This document shows, one piece after another, positions 4,802-43,681 of a stretch of 64,000 nt of DNA. The notes below the pieces were generated by a model. The model was not told where the DNA came from and did not search any database. It saw only the letters and a program-made list of their open reading frames with translations. The stretch comes from an uncultured Actinomycetes bacterium (lineage in GTDB: Bacteria > Actinomycetota > Acidimicrobiia > Acidimicrobiales > Ilumatobacteraceae), in assembly GCA_937876415.1 (NCBI GenBank), contig CALEHE010000301.1, positions 6,389 through 70,388 of the forward strand, written 5' to 3'. The translations under genes were made by a program, and so were the position numbers. The stretch's first letter is position 1. Every line of letters starts with the position of its first letter.

Positions 4802-5626
4802 GTGACTACTACATCTGAACCGACCTCAGGCCCAACACCTGATTTGAAAGCAGCGGCCCTTGGCGGCAATGCCGATCTCTTGGCGATGCCCACGTTTAAT
4901 ACCGTTGACGAAGAACGTGCTTACCGTAAATCACGCCTTGCTGGTGCCTTGCGCATTTTCGGTCGCATGGGATTTGGCGAAGGAGTCGCGGGACATATCA
5001 CCGTCCGCGACCCCGAACTCACTGATCACTTTTGGGTCAACCCATTTGGCTTGAGCTTTCGTCACATGCGCGTCAGTGATTTGCTCTTGGTCAACCATCA
5101 CGGAGAAGTCGTTCATGGCACCATGCCCGTGAATCGTGCCGCATTCGTCATCCACTCCGCAGTTCACCAGGCTCGACCCGATGTGATTGCTGCCGCTCAT
5201 GCCCACTCGGTCCACGGCAAAGCCTTTAGTTCATTAGGCATTCCGCTCGACCCCATCACCCAAGACGCCTGTATTTTCTACGACGATCACACCGTGATCA
5301 CCGAACAAGGTGGAGCAGTGGTTTTTGATATCGAAGCCGGCAAAGAACTTGCCTCAAAATTTCCGACGGGCAAAGCAGCCATTCACCAAAACCATGGTTT
5401 GTTTACTGTTGGTGCAACTGTTGAAGAAGCCGCTTTCTGGTTCTTATCAATGGACCGCTCATGCCAAGCACAATTGCTCGCTATGGCCGCCGGAACTCCC
5501 AAGCTGATCAAGCATGAGTACGCGCAATACACCCGTGAACAAACTGGCCATTCATTGGCTGGCTGGTTCCAGTTCCAGCCGTTGTGGCAAGAGATTTGTC
5601 GCACCGATCCCGAACTTTTCGACTGA
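4802..5626 (+). CDS. class II aldolase/adducin family protein
   Basis: 274 aa with GHITVRDP, a His cluster (AAHAHSVHG) and HQNHGLFTVG, typical of the class II aldolase/adducin N-terminal domain. GTG start. Confidence 0.8.
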   Translation: MTTTSEPTSGPTPDLKAAALGGNADLLAMPTFNTVDEERAYRKSRLAGALRIFGRMGFGEGVAGHITVRDPELTDHFWVNPFGLSFRHMRVSDLLLVNHHGEVVHGTMPVNRAAFVIHSAVHQARPDVIAAAHAHSVHGKAFSSLGIPLDPITQDACIFYDDHTVITEQGGAVVFDIEAGKELASKFPTGKAAIHQNHGLFTVGATVEEAAFWFLSMDRSCQAQLLAMAAGTPKLIKHEYAQYTREQTGHSLAGWFQFQPLWQEICRTDPELFD

Positions 5627-6555
5627 ACTCGTCGCTCGCCCCACAAAGTCCCGACAACTCAGTCGGACGCTTTTTCAACACCGCTTCACCCGAAGCGTTA
5701 TTTGTGTTGAGCGCTACTGCGCAGTACATCGGCGCCGTCATTGCAGTCAATTTATTTGATCAAGTCAATCCTGCGACTGTTGCTTGGTTTCGAGTCATCG
5801 GTGCATCGATCGCGTTGATCGCAATTTCAAGTCGGCGTTTATTTCATCGCCACCATCGCCAAAAATGGACCCGCCAAGATTTCATCGCCATGACTGTGTT
5901 CGGAGTTGCGACCGCGCTCATGAATACGTTCTTCTATTTGGCGATTGATCGATTGCCATTAGGTAAAGGTGTAGCGATTGAATTCATTGGTCCGATCGCG
6001 GTCGCCGCAGTACGAACTCGATCGCGACGTAACGCCGTAGCACTAGGGTGCGCCGCGCTCGGTGTTGCAGTTTTGTCTGGAGTTGAAATCCGTGGCGAAC
6101 CGCTTGGACTGTTATATATCTTCTTGGCTTCAGCAATGTGGGCGACCTACATCGTGGTCGGTTCACGCGTCGCGCAACAGAATCGTGGCGTTTCCGGACT
6201 TGGTGTAGGTCTAGCCATCGGCGCCCTGGTCATCACGCCCGTCGGTGCGTCAACGAGTGGTTCGGTGTGGAGCGCTCCACACCTGATTCTCGCTTGCATG
6301 TTTGTCGGCGTTATGTCTAACGCCATTGGTTACGGCATCGACCAATCAGTTTTGCGAAGAATTCCTATTCGCCGATTCAGCGTTTTGCTCGCGCTCTTAC
6401 CGGTAACCGCAACTGTAATCGCATTCATTGCTCTTGATCAAAAGCCGCAGCCACTTGATCTATTTGGCATGGCGCTCGTTCTCGTTGGCGTCGTCATTCA
6501 AGAACGCGAGACACTCGATAATCACTTAACCGAAACGAAGAGGTCAGTGAGATAG
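5584..6555 (+). CDS. EamA/DMT family transporter
   Basis: About 10 predicted hydrophobic helices in two EamA-like halves (e.g. FYLAIDRLPLGKGVAIEFIGP). The start is uncertain: GTG at 5584 overlaps the upstream gene by 43 nt, and GTG 5704 or TTG 5707 are alternatives. Confidence 0.7.
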   Translation: MARDLSHRSRTFRLNSSLAPQSPDNSVGRFFNTASPEALFVLSATAQYIGAVIAVNLFDQVNPATVAWFRVIGASIALIAISSRRLFHRHHRQKWTRQDFIAMTVFGVATALMNTFFYLAIDRLPLGKGVAIEFIGPIAVAAVRTRSRRNAVALGCAALGVAVLSGVEIRGEPLGLLYIFLASAMWATYIVVGSRVAQQNRGVSGLGVGLAIGALVITPVGASTSGSVWSAPHLILACMFVGVMSNAIGYGIDQSVLRRIPIRRFSVLLALLPVTATVIAFIALDQKPQPLDLFGMALVLVGVVIQERETLDNHLTETKRSVR

Positions 6556-7710
6556 ACCTGGGGCGCACAGACCCTCAAGGTCAAGCACTTGAATCCGATC
6601 GCGGTTAGCCCACGTGACAGGGTTGGTGGGATCGGCTTGCAACTTGAATGTTCTAAAAGACATTTCCGTTGTATCAACAGCCAAGATTCGTCCAATCAAA
6701 CCATCACCAAGCTTGAGCAAAATCTTGATGGTCTCAAGCGCCTGAATTGAACCAATAATTCCGGGCAAAACACCAAGAACTCCAGCCTCAGCACACGAGG
6801 GAGCGAGTTCGGCGGGTGGCGGTTCGGGCACCATGTCGCGATACGTCGGACCCTCTTTGGGATGGAACACCGAAACCATTCCTTCGAAGCGGAAGATTGA
6901 ACCATGAACCACAGGGATGCCGAGTTTCACACTTGCATCGTTCAGCAAGTAACGCGAGGGGAAGTTGTCAGCACCGTCAACGATGACGTCGTATCCCGCA
7001 ATAATCTCCATGATATTTTCAGCAGCAAGACGAGTGTCGTACGTGATCACCTTGACATCAGGGTTTAGCAGATTGATCGTCTTCTTTGCAGAATCAACTT
7101 TGCGGTCACCGATGCGGTCGATGTTGTGCAAAATCTGGCGTTGCAAATTGCTGGCATCAACATCATCCATGTCGACGATGCCGATTGTTCCGACACCAGC
7201 GGCCGCAAGATACAGTGCTGCTGGCGATCCGAGTCCACCGGCACCCAACATCAGCACTTTGCTATCCAGCAACTTCGACTGACCTTCTACGCCCACTTCA
7301 GGAAGCAACAGGTGGCGCTTGTAGCGATTCATTTGTTCGGGGGTCAGTGACGCGGGCGCTTTCCAAACGCGACCTTCGTCTTTCCACTTGCCGTAGCCAC
7401 CCGCCATGGACAAAACATTGGTGTATCCGAGTTCGGCAAGGGTCTTGGCAGCAAAGGCACTGCGCACTCCGCCGGCGCAATACACAATGACTGGTGATCC
7501 CTTATCAAGGATGCGGCCCTCAACTTGAGCCTCGAGGTGGCCACGTGGAATGTGCAAAGCCCCAACGAGGGCCCCTTCGGCGTATTCGTCGGGTTCGCGA
7601 ACATCCAAAACAGTGACGCCACCTGCGGTTATTTGCGTTTGAGCAGTAGCGGTATCCACTTCGGTAATAACCGATTTTGCGGCGGAAAGTAAGTCCCTGA
7701 AGGTAGCCAT
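6544..7710 (-). CDS. ThiF/MoeB-type adenylyltransferase with N-terminal rhodanese domain
   Basis: Residues 1-~120 form a rhodanese domain (VLDVREPDEYAEGALVGALHIP, active-site loop YCAGGVRS). The remainder is the ThiF/MoeB domain (LMLGAGGLGSPAALYLAAAGVGTIGIVDMDDVDASNLQRQ, GADNFPSRYLLND). Confidence 0.85.
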   Translation of the reverse strand: MATFRDLLSAAKSVITEVDTATAQTQITAGGVTVLDVREPDEYAEGALVGALHIPRGHLEAQVEGRILDKGSPVIVYCAGGVRSAFAAKTLAELGYTNVLSMAGGYGKWKDEGRVWKAPASLTPEQMNRYKRHLLLPEVGVEGQSKLLDSKVLMLGAGGLGSPAALYLAAAGVGTIGIVDMDDVDASNLQRQILHNIDRIGDRKVDSAKKTINLLNPDVKVITYDTRLAAENIMEIIAGYDVIVDGADNFPSRYLLNDASVKLGIPVVHGSIFRFEGMVSVFHPKEGPTYRDMVPEPPPAELAPSCAEAGVLGVLPGIIGSIQALETIKILLKLGDGLIGRILAVDTTEMSFRTFKLQADPTNPVTWANRDRIQVLDLEGLCAPGLSH

Positions 7711-25582: not shown

Positions 25583-26077
25583 ATGAAAAGACGCGACCGA
25601 GGCTCGAGCCTCATTGAAGTCGTCATCGCCGTTGCTCTCATGGGTGTGGTGCTCTCCGGCGTCTTTGGAGCGATGTGGTCAGCCATTCACCTGTCCAAAT
25701 TTTCTGATGACCAAGCCAAAGTTGAGGCGGTACTCGGCAGTGCTGCCGATCGTTTAGCGAACTACGCCTACATCCCGTGCCCAACCAACAACAGCAACGG
25801 CGGCTACCTCCCGATTATCCAAGCGGCCGCGGGAACGGTTGATTGGCCCCCAAATACCGTTGCTCTGACGGGCATGTATTTCTGGAACCCAACGTCGCCT
25901 GCGTCTGGTATCTGGCTGGAAACAAACGCACTTTCAGCAACCGAATGCAATGAGACCGCGTCACTAACAACAGCTCGAACATTGCAGCGGATCAAGTTCA
26001 CAGTCACGTCACCTTCTGGGTACGCAAAGTCATTGGAGGTGGTGAAGAGCAATGTGTTCCCGCGTTCAATTTCATAA
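25583..26077 (+). CDS. type IV pilin-like minor pilin (PilV/GspH-like) with prepilin-type N-terminus
   Basis: MKRRDRG/SSLIEVVIAVALMGVVLSGVF has a short basic leader, then Gly, Glu at +5 and a hydrophobic helix. The 164-aa protein has two Cys (C66, C122). Confidence 0.7.
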   Translation: MKRRDRGSSLIEVVIAVALMGVVLSGVFGAMWSAIHLSKFSDDQAKVEAVLGSAADRLANYAYIPCPTNNSNGGYLPIIQAAAGTVDWPPNTVALTGMYFWNPTSPASGIWLETNALSATECNETASLTTARTLQRIKFTVTSPSGYAKSLEVVKSNVFPRSIS

Positions 26078-27776
26078 AACCAACGCTCAACCGATTCAGC
26101 GCGATCGTGGTATGACACTCGTTGAATTACTAATGACGGTCACCATTCTCGGCATCATCATGACCAGTCTTTCAGCCGCAATGATTGTCATTCTCCGCAC
26201 TGAAGGTCCTATTAAGAATCATCTTTCTGAATCGAAGGACATTACATTTTTGCAAGCGTGGATACCTAATGATCTGGCGTCGGCAACAAGTCGCAATACC
26301 GAACCACTTTTCCAGCCATCAGCGACGATCGACTTGCTCGGCACCAATGTGCTGACGTTGAATCGTGCCGATATTTCAGCGAGCGGTATTTCCAGCAATT
26401 TCGTGGTGTCTTATCGTTATGTGCAATCAGGTGATGAATGGCAATTGCGGCGATACGAGATTCGCAATGTGGGACTAGCAAACCAAACTGTGACGCAAGT
26501 TGGGGTGGCTCACCAATTGGCATCCCCTCCCCCAACATGGAATCCAACACAATCACCAACTCACGCCGTCACCGTGACCTCGCGTAATCAAGTCGTCCTT
26601 CGACCAATCGGTGAAGACATTCAGGTGGTCTTTGGAAGTGGAGAACAATTCACGACTGGCGGCGCAGGTTTGTCGTCACAAGATCAGCTCCCCACCGATT
26701 ACATGGGTGGAATCATTGATCCCGCCGCACCACCAACTCGATGTGGCGGAACAGTGACTGTCGTCCTCGATACGTCTGTTTCAATTCCGTGGCAAGGTGG
26801 AGCAACATCTCTCGTCAACGCAGCCCTCGGCTTTATTGACGCTTTTTCGGGGACGCCAACTTTCATGCGTATTGTCGGCTTTGACGTCTCTGCGTATTCG
26901 TATTTTCCAACCACCGCTGGCCAATATGTCAACATTCTCAATCCCTCAAACGACCTCACCGCAATGCGGACCAAGGTCGATAACCAAGACTTATCTAACG
27001 CCCGCTGGGGCGGTGGAACGAACTGGGAAGACGGTTTGTGGCAAGCGTTTCGCACCAATGCCGGAACCCCTTTTTCTCAATTACCCGAACTAGTTGTCTT
27101 CATTTCTGATGGTGAACCAAACCGCAATCGAACCAATACATCCAACGACGGTGACGCTCGGTACAACACGACTGATCTGTCACGTGCGGTGACCGCGGCC
27201 AACTACGGACGTGGCACTGGCGCAAGAGTCGTCGGCATTCTCGTTGGCAACGACGCCAGCACAACCAACCAAGGTCGTATGAAGTCAGTCGTAGGAAATG
27301 TTGTCTGGAATGGAACTGGACCAACCAATCCCGGCAATGCCGCGGCCGCCGACTTTTTCTTGCCAGCCAACTCTGCATCCTTCGCCCAGTTAGGAAATGT
27401 CTTGCGTTCGATCAGCGCTGCCGTCTGTGGTGGAACTGTGACCGTTCAGAAACGAATAGAACAAAACGGAATACTTTCTGAAGCAACCGGAACTTGGTCG
27501 TACACAACTGATGTCGGTGTGCGTGACCTCAACACCGCAGAGTCGTCTTCGGCCACCTTTGATTACACATTTCCAGACGGTACAACAACTCGCACAGTGC
27601 AAATCACCGAGACTCCAAAATCTGGATACACATTTGTACGAGCAGATTGTTCTTCATCAGGAGTCATACTTCCCACCAGTCGACTCAGTGCGCCAGCAGA
27701 TGGATCGCCTGGTGCGGTGATTACCCTCAGTCCCGACGAAGCGGTTTCCTGCTTGATGGTGTCGCGGCCATCATGA
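26052..27776 (+). CDS. modular pilin-like protein: prepilin N-terminus + PilW-like region + vWA domain + CnaB/prealbumin-like domain
   Basis: The leader ...IQRDRG/MTLVELLMTVTILGIIMTS fits the prepilin N-methylation pattern exactly. MIDAS residues are DTSVS, GGTNWEDG and ISDGEPN (aa ~231-459). The C-terminal RTVQITETPKSGYTFVRADC resembles CnaB/SpaA domains. Confidence 0.75.
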   Translation: MCSRVQFHKTNAQPIQRDRGMTLVELLMTVTILGIIMTSLSAAMIVILRTEGPIKNHLSESKDITFLQAWIPNDLASATSRNTEPLFQPSATIDLLGTNVLTLNRADISASGISSNFVVSYRYVQSGDEWQLRRYEIRNVGLANQTVTQVGVAHQLASPPPTWNPTQSPTHAVTVTSRNQVVLRPIGEDIQVVFGSGEQFTTGGAGLSSQDQLPTDYMGGIIDPAAPPTRCGGTVTVVLDTSVSIPWQGGATSLVNAALGFIDAFSGTPTFMRIVGFDVSAYSYFPTTAGQYVNILNPSNDLTAMRTKVDNQDLSNARWGGGTNWEDGLWQAFRTNAGTPFSQLPELVVFISDGEPNRNRTNTSNDGDARYNTTDLSRAVTAANYGRGTGARVVGILVGNDASTTNQGRMKSVVGNVVWNGTGPTNPGNAAAADFFLPANSASFAQLGNVLRSISAAVCGGTVTVQKRIEQNGILSEATGTWSYTTDVGVRDLNTAESSSATFDYTFPDGTTTRTVQITETPKSGYTFVRADCSSSGVILPTSRLSAPADGSPGAVITLSPDEAVSCLMVSRPS

Positions 27777-29245
27777 CATTCAATCAATCAGCAAAAGATC
27801 GCGAGACCGAACTTGATCGTGGCTCTGCATTGCTAATGGTCCTGATTCTGATGACAGTCGGCAGCATCATCGCAGTTGGTCTGTTGACCTACGCCCGCGT
27901 TCTCCTTGATACCCGACCAGCGCTGCACGAACAGAATGCCGCGGCTGAGGCCGTGAAGTCTGGGACGCGAATGGCGATCGCTTTGCAACGAGATTTCGGG
28001 CCGTCGGCTTGTTTCGCCACATCAACAGATTGGTCGCTTAATGGATACAACGTCAACTCTTCATGCACCACCGTCACGAGTTACTCCACTGGCGCAAATC
28101 GTTACGGCACCATCACCACGCTTAACGCAGGAACGACAGCAAATATTTCAACCCCGGTATGGGCGGGCTCAACGACCACCGCATTGACTGGCAACATTCT
28201 TGTGAACACAGGAACATCCACTGACCCGCTCAGTAGCAATCTCATCAATGATGGTTCAACCACATGGACGAACACTGCACAACAGTGGTGGCAGATGGCT
28301 GGCGATAACCCCACCGGAACAAGTTGGGTCTATCCACAACTTCCGCAAATTCCCAGTTTTGTACGACCGGGTTCACAGGCGACGAACGGTACATGTTCGT
28401 TGTATTTTCCTGGCCGCTATGTAGGAACGACACCCCTCGCCCTCAACGGTGGTGTGCACTACTTTGCATCGGGCGTCTACTACTTTGAACGACCCTTGGT
28501 TATTACGGGCAGCGCCCAAGTTGTCTTTGGCGAAGGAAGTTACGCCGGATGTGCCGTCGATGCTCAAGCCGCTTATGCCGCAACTGCTCCAAAAAGCCAC
28601 GAGATCACTGGCAAAGGTGCGACCCTCCTACTAGGAAGTGGAGCGAGTTTGACGGTTCAGGAATCTTCCGTACGTTTCAATCGTCGAGTTTCAACGTCGA
28701 CAACACGTGGCAGCGAAGGTGTGTCAATTCGCACCGTCAACTTTGGCCAAAGCAATTCAACTGTTGAAGTCCCGACTGACACCGTTCTACTTCCAGACGG
28801 AACGACGACCTCAATTGCTACCCACTCCATCATTCCCGTTAATAATGCGACACCCGTTACGTATGTCTCTTCAACTCTCGCGCCAAGTACGTCTTGGGGG
28901 GTTGATGTTCGTCTCAACGGAACCAGTTCACTTACAAATCGTTTTCTCGTTGATGGCTACATTTTCATGCCGAGCACCGGCGTTCGCGCCACGAGCACGA
29001 CAGCCACGTACGAGTTCGGTATGACAGGCGGTGTCGTTGCAACAAAACTTCAGCTCGATCTCATGCTCGCACCGAACAAAGGAACCACTGCTTACGCAGT
29101 TGGAGTCATCAGCCAAACGATTCAGCGAAAAGTTCGTCTCGCGGTGTCTACAACCGACGGAATTCGCAATGCCGTATCTACTGCAATCGTTGAAGTTCAC
29201 GCCGACAAGAGTTATGCCATCAACTCGTGGGTTGTTGATCCCTGA
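27773..29245 (+). CDS. PilX_N-like anchored, Ser/Thr/Asn/Gly-rich secreted protein (putative pilus-tip-associated)
   Basis: ATGA overlap with the upstream gene. MTFNQSAKDRETELDRG/SALLMVLILMTVGSIIAVGLL resembles the PilX N-terminal domain and lacks Glu5. The remaining ~450 aa are beta-rich and low-complexity, with no recognised domain. Confidence 0.55.
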   Translation: MTFNQSAKDRETELDRGSALLMVLILMTVGSIIAVGLLTYARVLLDTRPALHEQNAAAEAVKSGTRMAIALQRDFGPSACFATSTDWSLNGYNVNSSCTTVTSYSTGANRYGTITTLNAGTTANISTPVWAGSTTTALTGNILVNTGTSTDPLSSNLINDGSTTWTNTAQQWWQMAGDNPTGTSWVYPQLPQIPSFVRPGSQATNGTCSLYFPGRYVGTTPLALNGGVHYFASGVYYFERPLVITGSAQVVFGEGSYAGCAVDAQAAYAATAPKSHEITGKGATLLLGSGASLTVQESSVRFNRRVSTSTTRGSEGVSIRTVNFGQSNSTVEVPTDTVLLPDGTTTSIATHSIIPVNNATPVTYVSSTLAPSTSWGVDVRLNGTSSLTNRFLVDGYIFMPSTGVRATSTTATYEFGMTGGVVATKLQLDLMLAPNKGTTAYAVGVISQTIQRKVRLAVSTTDGIRNAVSTAIVEVHADKSYAINSWVVDP

Positions 29246-29264: not shown

Positions 29265-30137
29265 TTAGCCAGCCAAAACGGCGCGGGCTACTAGATCGGT
29301 TCCGAATGCGGTCAAGATCGCGAGATACATCAACCCAGTTGCGGCCATCACCGCTGAATACGCCCGTTCTTGCAAGGCCTTCAAGGTGACCACAGCCAAG
29401 ACTCCCGTTGTGATTGCACACGCCACCCAAAACCAACCGAGCTGCCCGCCCCAACCATCGTCAACTGATCCAGTGAAAACACTGAACATTCCCGTCGGAA
29501 TCAACATAACGATGACTTCGAGGGGCCAGATAAACAAGAACGCTTTGACAATCTCGTTGACATGACGCCGAGGTAGCCCCGGTTGAACGAGATACCAGTG
29601 CCCTAACAACATCGCATCAGAAACGAACCCCAAGAATGCTGCTCCGACAATTGTTCTGATAATCGCTACTGCGTCATTACCACCATCTGAAACACCCGCG
29701 GCGATGAGGGCGATCAAACCGAATGCCACCGGGGCGAGATCAAGTAACGGCGCAAATTCCTTACCCTCACCGACTTCTTTTTCCGCACCTTCGCGGTCAA
29801 TCCCGGTCATCTCGGCGATGCGCTGTGATCGACGATCATGTTCATCGACAAATCCGCTCACGCCAGCCTTACGTCGAACAATACTCTGACCGAGGCCGAG
29901 TGCAATAACACCGGTCACTGCGATGGCGGCAAAGTTACGAATCGTTTCAGATGTGGACGATGGAGAAGTTGAGGCAAAACCGATGTACACCGAGGCGCCA
30001 GCCATCAACACATAGATACCGCGCAATAGCCACCCGTAGCCCAAACCCACTTCGCGGTGACGAGTCGTAAACCAGCACCCCAACATGCCGCCGACGGCCC
30101 ATTGCAGGAGCACCGTGGAGGCATCTAGTTCAATCAC
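29265..30137 (-). CDS. integral membrane protein, unknown function
   Basis: 290 aa with about 7-8 hydrophobic helices split by a charged loop (RRKAGVSGFVDEHDRRSQRIAEMTGIDREGAEKE). No family recognised. Confidence 0.5.
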   Translation of the reverse strand: MIELDASTVLLQWAVGGMLGCWFTTRHREVGLGYGWLLRGIYVLMAGASVYIGFASTSPSSTSETIRNFAAIAVTGVIALGLGQSIVRRKAGVSGFVDEHDRRSQRIAEMTGIDREGAEKEVGEGKEFAPLLDLAPVAFGLIALIAAGVSDGGNDAVAIIRTIVGAAFLGFVSDAMLLGHWYLVQPGLPRRHVNEIVKAFLFIWPLEVIVMLIPTGMFSVFTGSVDDGWGGQLGWFWVACAITTGVLAVVTLKALQERAYSAVMAATGLMYLAILTAFGTDLVARAVLAG

Positions 30138-30219
30138 ATCCTTTACGCTACGAGAACAATGACTCGCTAAAACAATTTCTGTTCAGGTTTCAAACGACGT
30201 TTAACTCTAGGATTCAACC

Positions 30220-30876
30220 GTGTCGTCATTTCGTCTCGCCCAATTGGCCACCGTTATAGGAATGTGCGCACTCATTCTCGGCGGCTGCTTTACGGGTCAA
30301 CGCCCTACTCTGGTACCCACCGAAACGATTCCGCCCATTTCCGATGCAGCTATTCACGACGTCGTGAAGGTTCTTGAATCCGACCCAATGGCCGCATTCA
30401 CCATCACCTACGGAGTTGTCACTAAGTATGGCGATCTTCATACCGCGGTGTCACTTGCTCATGATCCCGCGTTTGGGACGAGCATCACGATTGCCGAGGT
30501 GCGCTATATTTACTTGGCCAATGGCACGGCGTTGACGTGTTCAACAATCACCAGCGACTGTTCACCCGGAATTGATGAATCACGAGTCTCAGATCGCCAG
30601 TTGGTGTCAACGATTTTCAAACAGGCAAGCGTTGATCGTATGCAGCAAGACTCACGAGTCGCAGTCGGTTCGGCAGTTGCCTCGCAAGAAGTCATCGTGG
30701 AAAACAGTGCGATCTGTACCGCAATTCCGGTCGTTGATGGAAACGGCGCCACCCAATCAAAGCGTTATTGCGCGTTTACTCAATTCGGAGTGATTGCTTC
30801 GATGGATACTGCCGATCTCGCCGTCACCGCTTTGTCACACTCGGCAACAACCTCAGCCGATCAGTTTTCGGCCTAA
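30220..30876 (+). CDS. putative lipoprotein
   Basis: Signal peptide with a lipobox (ALILGG/C). 218 aa, GTG start. No family recognised. Confidence 0.55.
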   Translation: MSSFRLAQLATVIGMCALILGGCFTGQRPTLVPTETIPPISDAAIHDVVKVLESDPMAAFTITYGVVTKYGDLHTAVSLAHDPAFGTSITIAEVRYIYLANGTALTCSTITSDCSPGIDESRVSDRQLVSTIFKQASVDRMQQDSRVAVGSAVASQEVIVENSAICTAIPVVDGNGATQSKRYCAFTQFGVIASMDTADLAVTALSHSATTSADQFSA

Positions 30877-30881
30877 GTTAT

Positions 30882-31589
30882 TTACTCAGTTGGATCGCCA
30901 AAAGCACTGCGCTTCATCGAACGAGTATTCAAGATCTTTACTTCGACGAATTGGCGCGGTCGTGGCGAATGAATGACCGCTTGGCCAACTCCGAGCCACA
31001 TCATCACATGACCCGGGTAGCGCAGAAGATCTCCGGCTTGTGCAGTGTCAAATGTGCGCGGATCCGCCGCCCGAATCTGCCGAGTCGAATTACGCGGAAT
31101 ATTGAAACCTGCTTGGCTCCAAGCAAAAGATGTCAAACCCGAGCAGTCAAATCCAACACCTGGTTTCATGGCGAAGCGTTTGTACGGAACACCCACTTGA
31201 GTTAACGCGGCGATCAACGCGGTTTGATGGTTGATGTCTGAGTCAGCCCAAGCAGCTTCAAGTTCATCGGCATTCAGCACCAAACGATCAGCAATCAGTT
31301 CGGCCACTTGGCGACGCAATCGAACAAAAGTGGCACTTGGTTCTTGACCACGATTAAATCGAAATGAGTCTTGTCGCAATTGATTGAGCGCTTGATAGGC
31401 GGCCATCGCCACGGGGTCAAATCTAGGTATGGCAACAGCTGCCGGCAATTTCGCCGACATCGACTCGGCCGAAGCGATCGGCGCCAGAGTTGGGCTGAGC
31501 GTTAACAGAGCGGTCACCACGCCCACGACGGCCAGACCTCGACGACAATGACCCGTCACCCGTCGGTTGTGTCTCGGTGAATCGATCAT
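30882..31589 (-). CDS. NlpC/P60 (C40) family peptidoglycan peptidase
   Basis: The C-terminal domain has the catalytic Cys context (GVGFDCSGLTSFAWSQAG) and His (YPGHVMMWLG). The N-terminal signal peptide contains RR. Confidence 0.8.
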   Translation of the reverse strand: MIDSPRHNRRVTGHCRRGLAVVGVVTALLTLSPTLAPIASAESMSAKLPAAVAIPRFDPVAMAAYQALNQLRQDSFRFNRGQEPSATFVRLRRQVAELIADRLVLNADELEAAWADSDINHQTALIAALTQVGVPYKRFAMKPGVGFDCSGLTSFAWSQAGFNIPRNSTRQIRAADPRTFDTAQAGDLLRYPGHVMMWLGVGQAVIHSPRPRQFVEVKILNTRSMKRSAFGDPTE

Positions 31590-39727: not shown

Positions 39728-39756
39728 GAGAGCCCGGGTCCATGACCTGGGCTCTC
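39728..39756 (+). terminator. GC-rich hairpin between the SBP and ATPase genes (partial terminator / mRNA stabiliser)
   Basis: GAGAGCCC-(13 nt)-GGGCTCTC. A second hairpin, GATTCAG-TTT-CTGAATC, lies at 39689-39705 and overlaps the SBP stop codon. There is no strong U-tract. Confidence 0.4.
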
Positions 39757-39789
39757 TGCTATAACGGGATAAGCATTTCAAGGGGCGAC

Positions 39790-41346
39790 ATGACTGAACA
39801 ATCTCATTTAGGGCAATCTCATTTAGCCGTGGAGCTTCACGGCATCACCAAACGTTTTCCTGGTGTGATCGCTAATCACGACATTGAGCTCCTCGTCCGA
39901 CCCGAAACGATTCATGCAATTGTTGGAGAAAATGGTGCTGGTAAATCAACATTGATGAAAACCTTGTACGGCATGCACCAGCCAGACGAGGGCACCATCA
40001 CCGTCAACGGAACACTGGTGCAATTCAAGACCCCGACCGACGCCATTGCTGCGGGCATCGGAATGGTGCACCAACACTTCATGTTGGCAGACAATCTCAC
40101 GATCACCGAGAACATCATCTTGGGTGCTGAACCAGTTGATCATCGCGGGCGGATCAATTTCAAAGAGGCGCGAGATCGTATTGAAGCACTCATGACATCG
40201 CTTGGTGCGACATTTAATCCAGATACAAATGTTTCTGAGCTCGGCGTTGGTCAACGTCAACGGGTTGAGATTCTCAAAGTTTTGTATCGTGGCGCGAAGA
40301 TATTGATCCTTGATGAACCTACTGCCGTGCTTGTACCACAAGAAGTTGAGGAGCTATTTACGACCCTCAAGCGTCTCGTCGCCGACGGAGCAACTGTCAT
40401 TTTCATTTCGCACAAACTTGACGAAGTACTCGCCTATTGCGACGAAATCACCGTCATTCGTCAAGGCACGTCGGTTGCCCACACCGAACCATCGCAGGTG
40501 ACTCGTCGTTCACTTGCTGAACTTATGGTTGGCAGCGACCTGCCCGATCCATCTGGTCGCGAAACAAAAGTTGGCGACGATGTTCGTTTACAAGTGACTG
40601 GTCTCAATCTGGCTGGTGATATTGCTGGTGCAAAACTCGCACTGGAAGACATCAATGTCGCAGTCCATGCTGGTGAAATTGTGGGAATCGCTGGCGTTGA
40701 AGGAAATGGCCAATTTGAATTGTGCGAATCCATCTTGGGACTGCGGACCATTTTGAGTGGCTCAATTTCGGTCTGCGGGCAAGAACTTTCGCATACCGAA
40801 ACTCGCGAACGAATCAATATGGGATTGTCGTACATTCCATTCGACCGCCATCGTGAAGGATTACTTCTTGATGCACCACTTTGGGAAAACACGTTCTTGG
40901 GCCGTGAAGAAAACGCTGGGCTAACCAATGGTCCTTTCATTTCACGCAACAAGATTGAGGCTGATTGTCGCACAATTATTGATCGTTTCGGCGTCCTAAC
41001 GCCCAGTGAGCAAGTCCCTGCGTTTGCCCTCTCGGGTGGCAACCAGCAAAAACTTGTCGTTGGTCGCGAAATGGCCGGTCATCCCAAGGTTTTACTCGCT
41101 GCCCATCCAACACGTGGAGTGGACGTTGGCGCCCAGGCTGCAATTTGGGATGAATTGCGCCACGCCCGCGATAACGGTCTTGGTGTCCTGCTGATTTCAG
41201 CCGACCTTGAAGAACTCATCGGCTTGTCCGATCGAATACTGGTGATGTTTGACGGTCGTGTCACTGCCCATCTCAATCCAGCAACTGCTACTCCTGAAAT
41301 GCTCGGAACGTACATGACTGGTGAAGAGCAAGGAGTCGATGGATGA
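39790..41346 (+). CDS. ABC transporter ATP-binding protein (duplicated ATPase; nucleoside/sugar importer type)
   Basis: Domain 1 has GENGAGKST, LGVGQRQRVEI and ILILDEPT. Domain 2 has GVEGNGQ, LSGGNQQK and LLAAHPTRGVD. ATG 39790 follows an AAGGGG RBS; the longest ORF start (39742) lies inside the hairpin. Confidence 0.9.
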   Translation: MTEQSHLGQSHLAVELHGITKRFPGVIANHDIELLVRPETIHAIVGENGAGKSTLMKTLYGMHQPDEGTITVNGTLVQFKTPTDAIAAGIGMVHQHFMLADNLTITENIILGAEPVDHRGRINFKEARDRIEALMTSLGATFNPDTNVSELGVGQRQRVEILKVLYRGAKILILDEPTAVLVPQEVEELFTTLKRLVADGATVIFISHKLDEVLAYCDEITVIRQGTSVAHTEPSQVTRRSLAELMVGSDLPDPSGRETKVGDDVRLQVTGLNLAGDIAGAKLALEDINVAVHAGEIVGIAGVEGNGQFELCESILGLRTILSGSISVCGQELSHTETRERINMGLSYIPFDRHREGLLLDAPLWENTFLGREENAGLTNGPFISRNKIEADCRTIIDRFGVLTPSEQVPAFALSGGNQQKLVVGREMAGHPKVLLAAHPTRGVDVGAQAAIWDELRHARDNGLGVLLISADLEELIGLSDRILVMFDGRVTAHLNPATATPEMLGTYMTGEEQGVDG

Positions 41347-42428
41347 AAAATCCACGACTTCAACGCATGCTTGTCACTTCGGCCAGTTCTCTGCTAGCAG
41401 TATTTGTTGCACTCTGTATTTGTGCAGTGATTTTGTTGATCACTGGCAAAGATCCCATTGAGGCATACCGCACTCTGTTCGGCGCAGCAGGCGAAACAAA
41501 AGTTTTACAAGGTGCACTTAACCGAGCCACACCACTCATGATTTCAGCCGCCGCAGTGGCCATCGGATTCAAAATGAATCTCTTCAATATCGGCGTTGAG
41601 GGTCAAATGCGCGTGGCACTTCTGGCAACTGCAGTTGCCGGTGCTGCTGTTGACCTACCTGCACCGCTGCACATCCTTTTCTGCCTTGTTGTCGCAATGG
41701 CAAGTGGCGCGATTTGGGCTGGTATTGCGGGCTGGCTAAAGGTCAAGCGCGGTGTCAATGAAGTGATTTCAACCATCATGTTGAACTTCGTAGCCCTGAG
41801 CTTGGTCGCCTGGGCATTTGATTCGTTCTTCCGTGCCGAGAGCACCACCGGGAGTTTGCTTGTGAAGACCAAGGAACTCCCAACCTCGGCGTGGTTTCCC
41901 GACATTGTTGAACGTCGCTTAAACGGAATGTTCTTTGTCGCCATATTAGTTTTAGTTCTCTTCTATGTTTTGGTCTGGAAAACGAAGTTCGGCTTCCAAC
42001 TTCGTGCTTCTGGCGCCAACGCTGGTGCCTCACGTGTCACCGGCGTCAACCCCAAGCGCATGGTGATGATTTCGATGTTGCTCTCGGGAGCACTCGCCGG
42101 ACTAGTTGGAATGCGGGCGCTACTCGGCGATGTTCATGCGTACCAAAACAACCTTGCCGAACAACAAGGTTTCAATGGCATCGCCGTTGCACTTCTTGGT
42201 CGCAACCATCCACTTGGAATATTTATCTCGGCACTGCTCTTCGGTTATCTCGGTGAAGCATCTGGTCGTTTGCAACTGATTGATATTCCTAAGGAAATCA
42301 CCACGATCATGACGGGCATCATTGTTCTTGCGGTGGTGATTATCAATGAGGCGGTCAAACGTTGGGATGATCGGCGCATCCAACACAAAGCCGCACTGGC
42401 CCTTGAGTCTGCGGCGGTGCCGGCATGA
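41343..42428 (+). CDS. ABC transporter permease (BPD_transp_2 type)
   Basis: ATGA overlap with the ATPase gene. Multi-TM, 361 aa, typical of BMP/ribose-type permeases. Confidence 0.85.
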   Translation: MKNPRLQRMLVTSASSLLAVFVALCICAVILLITGKDPIEAYRTLFGAAGETKVLQGALNRATPLMISAAAVAIGFKMNLFNIGVEGQMRVALLATAVAGAAVDLPAPLHILFCLVVAMASGAIWAGIAGWLKVKRGVNEVISTIMLNFVALSLVAWAFDSFFRAESTTGSLLVKTKELPTSAWFPDIVERRLNGMFFVAILVLVLFYVLVWKTKFGFQLRASGANAGASRVTGVNPKRMVMISMLLSGALAGLVGMRALLGDVHAYQNNLAEQQGFNGIAVALLGRNHPLGIFISALLFGYLGEASGRLQLIDIPKEITTIMTGIIVLAVVIINEAVKRWDDRRIQHKAALALESAAVPA

Positions 42429-43681
42429 AATTCTTTAAGTCATTAACAACCGGACAACGCACCATTGCCTTGTCACTCGGTTTCATGCTGGTCTTGTCAA
42501 TTGTTCGTCTCTTCACCAATGCCGATGACATCACCAGTTCAGGAACAATCTCATCAACGTTGCGTGTTGCGACACCTATTTTGCTTGCTGGCCTTGCTGG
42601 CGTGTGGGCCGAACGAGTTGGCATCGTCAACATCGGAATCGAAGGAATGATGATCATAGGCACCTGGTTCGGTGCCTATGGTGCCTGGAAATGGGGTTCG
42701 TGGGCAGGTATCGCCTTAGCAATTTTTGCTGGTTCCCTCGTCGGCTTACTTCACGCGTTGGCAACTGTTCGATTTAACGTGAATCACGTTGTCTCGGGTA
42801 TCGCGATCAATATCTTGGCGGCTGGTTCAACCGAGTATCTCTCGATCATCTTCTTTAAGGGTCAAAAGGGTGGCGGAGAAAGTCAATCGCCCGCCGGCAA
42901 AGGTGGTTACGGCGAATTCGATATGCCGTTCTTATCGGGAGGGCGTATTGGTTCTTGGCGTAGCCCTGACATTTTGGGTTGGCTTGAAAAGAAGCACGAT
43001 CTTCCACTTCTGCCTGACCTCGCCGGCGTACTTCGCGGTCTTGTGAGCGACATTTACGTCCCGACCATTGTTGCAATCGCTCTTGTTCCAATCACTGCAT
43101 ATATCTTGTGGCGTACGCGCTTTGGACTTCGCGTTCGTTCAAGCGGTGAATCACCCCAAGCCGGCGAAAGTTTGGGTGTATCAATTAATCGTCTGCGCTA
43201 TCAGGCAATGGCGATCAGCGGTGGATTGGCCGCATTTGGTGGAGCGTACTTATCGACTGTTTTCACCAGCACATACCGCCAAGGTCAAACTGGCGGTCAG
43301 GGATACATCGGACTTGCGACAACCATCTTTGGTAACTGGAACCCATTCGGAGTGTTCCGTGGCGCGATCTTGTTTGGTTTCCCGTCGGCGCTCAAGTTCC
43401 GCGACGAGAAGAACGTACCGTCGCTTCTGTTGGTCATTGCCGTCATTTTGATTGCACTCGGCGTTGTGAGCCTGATGAAAAACAAGCAGATATTGACGAT
43501 GGGGCTCTTTATCGGATCCGCCATATCAGCCGCCACATACTTCTTAGTTGATGACGTCCCTCAAGAGTTCGTCGCGGCGACGCCATACATCGTCACGATT
43601 CTGGTGCTCGCTGGGGCTCAACAACAGTTGCGTCCACCGGCCTACGCTGGTATCCCCTACCGTGCCGGCGAGAATCACTAA
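42425..43681 (+). CDS. ABC transporter permease (BPD_transp_2 type)
   Basis: ATGA overlap with the upstream permease. Multi-TM, 418 aa, and the last gene of the operon. Confidence 0.85.
   Translation: MKFFKSLTTGQRTIALSLGFMLVLSIVRLFTNADDITSSGTISSTLRVATPILLAGLAGVWAERVGIVNIGIEGMMIIGTWFGAYGAWKWGSWAGIALAIFAGSLVGLLHALATVRFNVNHVVSGIAINILAAGSTEYLSIIFFKGQKGGGESQSPAGKGGYGEFDMPFLSGGRIGSWRSPDILGWLEKKHDLPLLPDLAGVLRGLVSDIYVPTIVAIALVPITAYILWRTRFGLRVRSSGESPQAGESLGVSINRLRYQAMAISGGLAAFGGAYLSTVFTSTYRQGQTGGQGYIGLATTIFGNWNPFGVFRGAILFGFPSALKFRDEKNVPSLLLVIAVILIALGVVSLMKNKQILTMGLFIGSAISAATYFLVDDVPQEFVAATPYIVTILVLAGAQQQLRPPAYAGIPYRAGENH

Follow-up and report, generated by a model that had tools for sequence, protein, structure and literature searches.

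A three-gene minor-pilin-like cassette of an uncultured Ilumatobacteraceae bacterium and its relation to the type IV pilus loci of Acidimicrobiia

Gene layout and signal peptides of the cassette

We analyzed a cassette of three minor-pilin-like genes carried by a 64,000-nt stretch of DNA, referred to here as the window, from an uncultured bacterium (assembly GCA_937876415.1, contig CALEHE010000301.1, positions 6,389 to 70,388 of the forward strand). A first-pass annotation, made from the letters alone, had noted three tightly coupled open reading frames (ORFs) with leaders ending in Asp-Arg-Gly and had read them as an orphan PilV/PilW/PilX-like minor-pilin operon in a host that it guessed to be actinobacterial. 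The guess was right, as the organism belongs to the Acidimicrobiia/Ilumatobacteraceae, in an acAcidi-like lineage of fresh and brackish water. The abundant Acidimicrobiia of these habitats are uncultured, and to our knowledge the non-Tad type IV pili (T4P) of Actinomycetota are essentially uncharacterized. In the ORF list of the window the cassette consists of three plus-strand ORFs encoding proteins of 164, 574 and 490 aa:

25583..26077, plus strand: ORF1, putative small minor pilin in the GspI/PilV position, 164 aa
26052..27776, plus strand: ORF2, putative modular minor pilin in the GspJ/PilW position, 574 aa
27773..29245, plus strand: ORF3, putative large minor pilin without Glu5 in the GspK/PilX position, 490 aa

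Direct reading of the sequence confirmed the described coupling of the genes, with ORF1 and ORF2 overlapping by 26 nt and ORF2 and ORF3 sharing an ATGA. A GGAGG lies 12 nt upstream of the ORF2 start, and a promoter consensus scan returned no sites. The same three gene calls are found on many identical public metagenome contigs and in the metagenome-assembled genome (MAG) GCA_030731465.1.

The leaders were also as described. All three proteins carry at their N-terminus a short charged leader that ends in D-R-G and precedes about 20 hydrophobic residues (a slash marks the junction: MKRRDRG/SSLIEVVIAV in ORF1, QRDRG/MTLVELLMTV in ORF2 and ELDRG/SALLMVLILM in ORF3). The hidden Markov model (HMM) check proposed in the first-pass annotation placed ORF1 (27.9 bits) and ORF2 (26.0 bits) above the cut-off of 21.2 bits for Pfam N_methyl (PF07963), and both were above the cut-off of TIGR02532 as well, while ORF3 fails the HMM and had sub-threshold N-terminal matches only, to PilX_N (E 0.054) and to the NCBIfam GspK model (E 0.0012). 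When we considered the homologues of each protein, the pattern D-x-G/[FYS][ST]L.E was kept in 61 of 69 for ORF1, D-x-G/MTL[VP]E in 65 of 75 for ORF2, and D-x-G/[SAM].L in 75 of 80 for ORF3, the last without Glu5, as the first reading of ORF3 had it. Since the junction is kept family-wide, it is not a chance resemblance. The three N-termini are moreover homologous to one another by hhalign, with a probability of 96% for ORF2 against ORF1 and of 78% (E 1.7e-5) for ORF3 against ORF1.

Ratios of nonsynonymous to synonymous substitution (dN/dS), measured against congeners whose synonymous divergence is saturated, were 0.04-0.09 for ORF1, 0.05-0.14 for ORF2 and 0.05-0.18 for ORF3, a range equal to that of the neighboring CoA-transferase and other housekeeping genes. 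Because dN/dS lies between 0.04 and 0.18 throughout, the cassette genes are functional and maintained by selection, including at those residues that would serve only prepilin processing and filament assembly.

Domain content of the three proteins

In ORF1, the SSLIE that follows the leader contains Glu5 and leads into a hydrophobic alpha1N helix. Residues D5, G7, E12 and Cys66 are invariant in the family alignment and Cys122 is nearly so, and the family profile gave weak matches to solved pilins.

The first-pass annotation had also remarked that the proteins must carry extra modules, which was borne out for both larger proteins. For ORF2 we distinguish three parts:

26052..26741, plus strand: leader (residues 1-20, ending in DRG) and predicted pilin module (about residues 21-230), from homology and hhalign
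26748..27431, plus strand: predicted vWA domain (about residues 233-460) with an invariant metal-ion-dependent adhesion site (MIDAS)
27426..27773, plus strand: predicted C-terminal prealbumin-like (SpaA_4-like) beta domain, from recurrent sub-threshold SpaA_4 matches

Within the first part, G20 and E25 are invariant, the first ~140 residues are 30% identical (E 9e-17) to a pilin of 208 aa without vWA encoded in a T4P locus (L091), and the N-terminus of the family profile aligns to a Geobacter pilin. In the vWA part, the MIDAS residues D240-x-S242-x-S244 (26769-26783), T323 and D353 are invariant across the ORF2 family alignment. ORF2 itself matched VWA_2 in Pfam at a sub-threshold level (E 0.11), and six of its orthologues exceed the Pfam cut-off for VWA (PF00092). 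The family profile aligns these MIDAS residues with those of the vWA domains of ITIH4, MIC2 and integrin alpha-X; its matches to solved vWA domains are weak and mutually consistent, with a best E of 0.0018. Sub-threshold SpaA_4 matches recur in the last ~115 residues (21.3 bits, E 5e-4, in ORF2; 26.9 and 17.7 bits in the homologues of L018 and L031), and Cys459, Cys533 and Cys567 are conserved in the C-terminal domain. A PDB sequence search with ORF2 returned no matches. Because vWA is missing from the homologous cassette that L090-L093 carry in their T4P locus, the vWA and C-terminal domains of ORF2 are a module added to the basic cassette pilin.

Some ORF2 homologues are considerably longer (850-1270 aa; L038, L049, L058, L060, L071 and L080) and contain many tandem units of ~25-30 residues with the motif SNTT-x-D-x-TDGW[RQ], located between the vWA and the C-terminal domain. 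These units are missing from ORF2 of the window.

ORF3 was modeled with AlphaFold2 from a 53-sequence alignment, giving a predicted local distance difference test (pLDDT) of 88.1 and a predicted template modeling score (pTM) of 0.76. The model has an alpha1 helix of 60 residues (16-75) and a small beta-sheet (84-115), a helix-then-sheet arrangement predicted to be as in pilins, followed by many short strands that would form a beta-rich, solenoid-like module. PDB sequence searches with ORF3 and with its profile returned no matches. The last subunit of the trio is a confidently predicted fold with no solved neighbor. Cys98, Cys208 and Cys260 are invariant, which would fit an extracellular protein. 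Since some members of the family have a C-terminal PA14 (PF07691) or Big_9/fn3 domain (P0135, P0142, P0143, P0451-P0455 and P0460), the last subunit of the cassette is also a carrier of variable adhesin-type modules.

Genomic context in the window and across Acidimicrobiia

The ORF3 family is small, with 257 clusters at 50% identity in an exhaustive search of 1.84 billion representatives. Our scan of one genome per species yielded 79 cassette loci, essentially all of them labeled Acidimicrobiia, Ilumatobacteraceae or Acidimicrobiaceae; the nearest are found in MAGs from the Caspian Sea (97%) and from Lake Mendota (an Ilumatobacteraceae, 92%) and in "actinobacterium acAcidi" (89%). Clustering of genes across loci showed that the order ORF1-like, ORF2-like, ORF3-like is kept in most of them (more than 47). 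Four of the MAG records that hold an Acidimicrobiia cassette (L013, L014, L047 and L072) are titled Bifidobacterium breve or Bifidobacterium sp.; these labels look wrong, and L013 and L014 share the synteny and the 53% GC of the window.

About 25 of the 79 loci encode the cassette together with a major pilin, PilB, PilC, PilD and PilT, and the same linkage was seen in about 15 metagenome loci found independently with a PilB query. The Acidimicrobiales locus L060 may serve as an example. Its cassette is preceded by a pilin gene (N_methyl, KDRG/FTLVELLIV), consists of an ORF1-like gene (N_methyl), an 864-aa ORF2-like gene with VWA above the cut-off and an ORF3-like gene, and is followed by DUF429, PilT (T2SSE, 383 aa), PilD (A24_N_bact and Peptidase_A24), PilC (T2SSF), PilB (T2SSE and MshEN) and a coiled-coil protein, with domains as assigned by Pfam. 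In L090-L093, the genes of 213, 208 and 483 aa that follow DUF429 have their homologues in ORF1, in the N-terminal part of ORF2 and in ORF3. The basic cassette is therefore a regular part of the Acidimicrobiia T4P locus.

At the same time, the cassettes tend to be detached from the machinery. About two thirds of the cassette loci have no pilus genes within 10 kb, and of the PilB loci that reach beyond DUF429, about half have pilins and lack the cassette. The word "orphan" used in the first-pass annotation is thus apt for the window itself and does not describe a peculiarity of it. T4P genes can be dispersed: in the MAG SXKB01, PilB-PilC lies on contig 194, and contig 22 holds pilin-cassette-DUF429-PilT-PilD. 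Five contigs hold at least two cassettes (L035, L038, L059, L073 and L083), which suggests that a single genome may encode alternative tip complexes. GC content is 53% in the window and its congeners, 64-68% in relatives that share the synteny and 59-72% in other Acidimicrobiia; this strong shift toward AT in the lineage of the window agrees with streamlining of the genome in a lineage of planktonic bacteria.

We made several further observations on the T4P loci of the class. Their gene order is fixed: coiled-coil protein (~440 aa), PilB, PilC, PilD, PilT, DUF429, (cassette) and pilin (L060, 11852-12571 and 17579-18892; L090-L181). No PilM/N/O-like genes were recognized in the annotated loci, and the DUF429 and coiled-coil proteins may be unrecognized pilus components. 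About 5 kb upstream of pilB in L090 and L091 (3738-4757) lie genes for a Roadblock/LC7 (MglB-like) protein and a Ras-like small GTPase (MglA-like), a pair that recalls the polarity module steering T4P motility in Myxococcus. In the T4P-linked cassette of L076, two overlapping IS3-type transposase-like ORFs (OrfA/OrfB, identified by eye; 5404-6716) lie between the pilin and the ORF1-like gene. A divergent PilB-like ATPase, 37-41% identical to the PilB of L060, is encoded with a coiled-coil gene about 10 kb from otherwise detached cassettes in L032 (~10.5-12.5 kb) and L065 (~20.3-22 kb), and may belong to a second type IV filament system, distinct from the first, in Ilumatobacteraceae. Annotation of other Acidimicrobiia MAGs has recorded genes for type IVa pili (T4aP) (PMC12008989), and our literature search found no experimental work on these genes.

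The annotated neighbors of the cassette, in the window and in the 10 kb upstream and ~5.7 kb downstream of it, are metabolic and transport genes only (a CoA-transferase, MFS, an amidase, ABC transporters, MetH, enoyl-CoA hydratases and the like), and no tRNA or Rfam features were found in the window. Just 3′ of the cassette (29265-31589) are genes for a convergent 290-aa multi-pass membrane protein, a 218-aa lipoprotein-like protein and an NlpC/P60 peptidoglycan hydrolase, the first two with no Pfam match. All close relatives (L011-L026) have these genes in the same position. The 290-aa protein (29265-30137) had been suspected of being a prepilin peptidase and was rejected, with no Pfam matches at E ≤ 5. 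Similarly, a trio of 534, 361 and 418 aa (39742-43681), which resembles pilB/T/C by size, was identified with Pfam as a nucleoside-type ABC transporter.

Interpretation and comparison with known systems

The reading of the three genes as PilV/PilW/PilX-like minor pilins is supported because the class III HMM matches, the N-terminal homology detected by hhalign and the synteny with T4P genes in distant Acidimicrobiia all point to it. We consider it probable that they encode the minor-pilin priming and tip complex of a type IVa-like pilus in a monoderm Acidimicrobiia bacterium. The class III signal peptide would direct the insertion of each protein into the membrane, and a prepilin peptidase would cut after the conserved Gly. 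By analogy with GspI-J-K and PilV-W-X, ORF1, the pilin module of ORF2 and ORF3 would then join through their alpha1 helices into a cap, with the Glu5-less ORF3 on top. Such a cap is expected to nucleate polymerization of the major pilin by PilB/PilC and to remain at the pilus tip, where it would display the metal-dependent vWA adhesion domain and the prealbumin-like domain of ORF2 together with the beta-rich module of ORF3. The tip may thereby mediate attachment to particles, polymers or other cells, and retraction by PilT would then pull the bound ligand. In this lineage the cassette would be separated from the machine, which we expect to be encoded elsewhere in the genome.

Several results weigh against this proposal. 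None of the curated GspI/J/K and PilV/W/X models of Pfam and NCBIfam reached its cut-off with the three ORFs, the sub-threshold scores being 18.5 bits for GspK (cut-off 130), 17.8 for XpsI (150) and 13.9 for PilX_N (25.5). The structure model of ORF2 had a pLDDT of 30, from an alignment that held only sequences at least 86% identical, and a Foldseek search of the ORF3 model against PDB found nothing significant, the top hit, GspK, being at noise level (E 1.6). As the first-pass annotation had stated for the 64 kb, there is no assembly machinery at the locus: Pfam annotation places no pilB, pilC, pilD or pilT in the window, in the 10 kb upstream or in the ~5.7 kb downstream. There is also no major pilin in the window, since a six-frame scan for class III signal motifs finds ORF1 and ORF2 only. 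Elsewhere, no PilB of the 53%-GC genus was found among the best 120 PilB clusters retrieved with the Ilumatobacteraceae locus L033 as query, and none of the best 80 loci in a metagenome scan with a PilB profile had a GC content below 58%. Four PilB look-ups led to contigs of 64-70% GC, and these contigs and the metagenome loci together span 58-72% GC. The PilB sequences of most Acidimicrobiia share more than 85% identity, amino-acid composition did not predict GC content, and codon usage was too flat for the design of a lineage-specific DNA pattern. These searches return arbitrary subsets, namely the top matches among thousands of nearly equal scores, and absence from their lists is for that reason weak evidence.

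Alternatively, the streamlined low-GC planktonic genus may have lost the T4P motor and kept the cassette as an adhesin complex, anchored in the membrane or exported in some other way, that works without PilB/PilC. The lack of any T4P gene within ~80 kb would be expected in that case, as would the lack of a ~53%-GC PilB among the best clusters and loci just described, given that the population is very abundant in metagenomes. Planktonic Acidimicrobiales genomes are, in addition, streamlined and without flagellar motility genes (PMC4337565). However, Gly(-1) and Glu5, which serve only peptidase processing and filament assembly, are strictly conserved at a dN/dS of ~0.05-0.15, and detached cassettes are common in high-GC relatives too, whose family plainly has PilB. 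Together with the weakness of the PilB absence, this leaves motor loss an unlikely explanation. We hold the related claim, that this genus has no T4P motor at all and keeps the pilin-like trio under strong selection as a surface adhesion complex independent of machinery (or dependent on Tad or other machinery), to be improbable as well. If motor loss did take place, subunits of a pilus tip would have survived, and would be working, after the pilus itself was lost.

The same filament machinery could also be present with a tip devoted mainly to DNA uptake in natural competence, the beta module of ORF3 playing the part that the beta-solenoid has in Thermus ComZ. Uptake of DNA by way of T4P is widespread, the ORF3 model has many short strands of solenoid type, and ComZ was in the Foldseek list of this model. 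Its match is, however, not significant (E ~3, TM ~0.1), the presence of vWA/MIDAS domains and of PA14 fusions indicates ligands that are proteins or glycans, and there is no comEA or comEC near the cassette. We therefore regard a primary role in DNA uptake as doubtful.

The first-pass annotation had allowed for a reassignment to a Tad/Flp system, in which the proteins would be TadE/TadF/TadG-like pseudopilins served by the secretion ATPase of a Tad system. In Actinobacteria the common pili are of the Tad type, TadG often has a vWA, and the D-x-G/S-x-L-x-E N-termini do resemble TadE/G motifs. We nevertheless found no match to TadE (PF07811) or Tad (PF13400) at E ≤ 1 in the three ORFs, N_methyl is matched above its cut-off, and the cassette of the relatives sits with PilB (MshEN and T2SSE), a two-domain PilC, PilT, an A24 peptidase bearing A24_N and a GFTLIELL pilin, a combination that does not amount to a Tad set, so that this reassignment is very unlikely. 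That the three are ordinary signal-anchored or secreted surface proteins whose likeness to pilins is coincidental, as the missing curated domain match of ORF3 and the low pLDDT of the ORF2 model might suggest, is scarcely credible and already contradicted by two N_methyl matches above the cut-off, a cleavage motif kept across ~70 homologues of each protein and repeated linkage to pilin and T4P machinery genes.

Taking the minor-pilin tip complex as the preferred reading, the cassette would define a class-specific tip complex in which a vWA/MIDAS adhesin is fused to the middle pilin. The occurrence of several cassettes on one contig suggests that pilus tips may be exchangeable, and one motor could then bind different substrates. 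In ecological terms, the cassette points to attachment to surfaces or particles, or to cell-cell contact, in a lineage usually deemed purely planktonic.

Among the closest known systems, the cassette resembles GspI-GspJ-GspK of the type II secretion system and PilV-PilW-PilX of T4aP in being a three-gene operon with a small-medium-large order and class III signal peptides, in having a last subunit without Glu5 and with a large extra domain, as GspK and PilX do, and in being encoded, in relatives, with PilB/PilC/PilD/PilT and a major pilin. It differs from these sets in that it has no GspH/FimU-like fourth subunit and no PilY1, belongs to a monoderm host, is detached from the machinery in the window and reaches no curated family cut-off. 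Furthermore, the extra module of ORF3 is beta-rich and has no PDB neighbor, whereas GspK has an alpha-domain.

The fusion in ORF2 has a counterpart in Streptococcus sanguinis PilB, a bimodular pilin-vWA adhesin at the pilus tip of another monoderm (PMC8179133). For the proposed mechanism, this PilB and the PilY1-minor-pilin complexes are the nearest precedents. ORF2 and the streptococcal protein both have a class III signal peptide and a pilin module at the N-terminus and, behind it, a vWA with a canonical MIDAS. However, ORF2 has an additional prealbumin-like domain, has homologues with long repeat insertions and is the middle gene of three. Neither the ORF2 protein nor its family profile gave a PDB sequence match to S. 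sanguinis PilB, and because no sequence relationship is detectable, the two pilin-vWA fusions probably arose independently.

An adhesin with a vWA is also tied to a minor-pilin priming complex in the PilY1 clusters of Myxococcus xanthus and Pseudomonas aeruginosa, several alternative versions of which can lie off the main pil locus, a situation that the contigs with more than one cassette resemble. In those clusters the vWA resides on a non-pilin beta-propeller protein; in the cassette it is fused to the pilin ORF2, and no PilY1 domain is present. The likeness of ORF3 to Thermus thermophilus ComZ, which has an inserted beta-solenoid (PDB 6QVI), lies in both being large minor pilins with an extra module rich in beta-strands, although, besides the non-significant structural match, no sequence similarity was found. 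As for the Com pseudopilus, which has ComGA/ComGB and no PilT, the cassette proteins reached only E 0.18 with ComGE in NCBIfam and did not make up a ComGC-GG set, and the related loci differ from it in holding PilT and an MshEN-bearing PilB. The cassette is not a new system but a known one in a lineage-specific form, and current pilus models are not overturned by it. It would add a monoderm example of the design, combining a priming complex with an adhesin, that is known from PilY1 systems and from S. sanguinis PilB.

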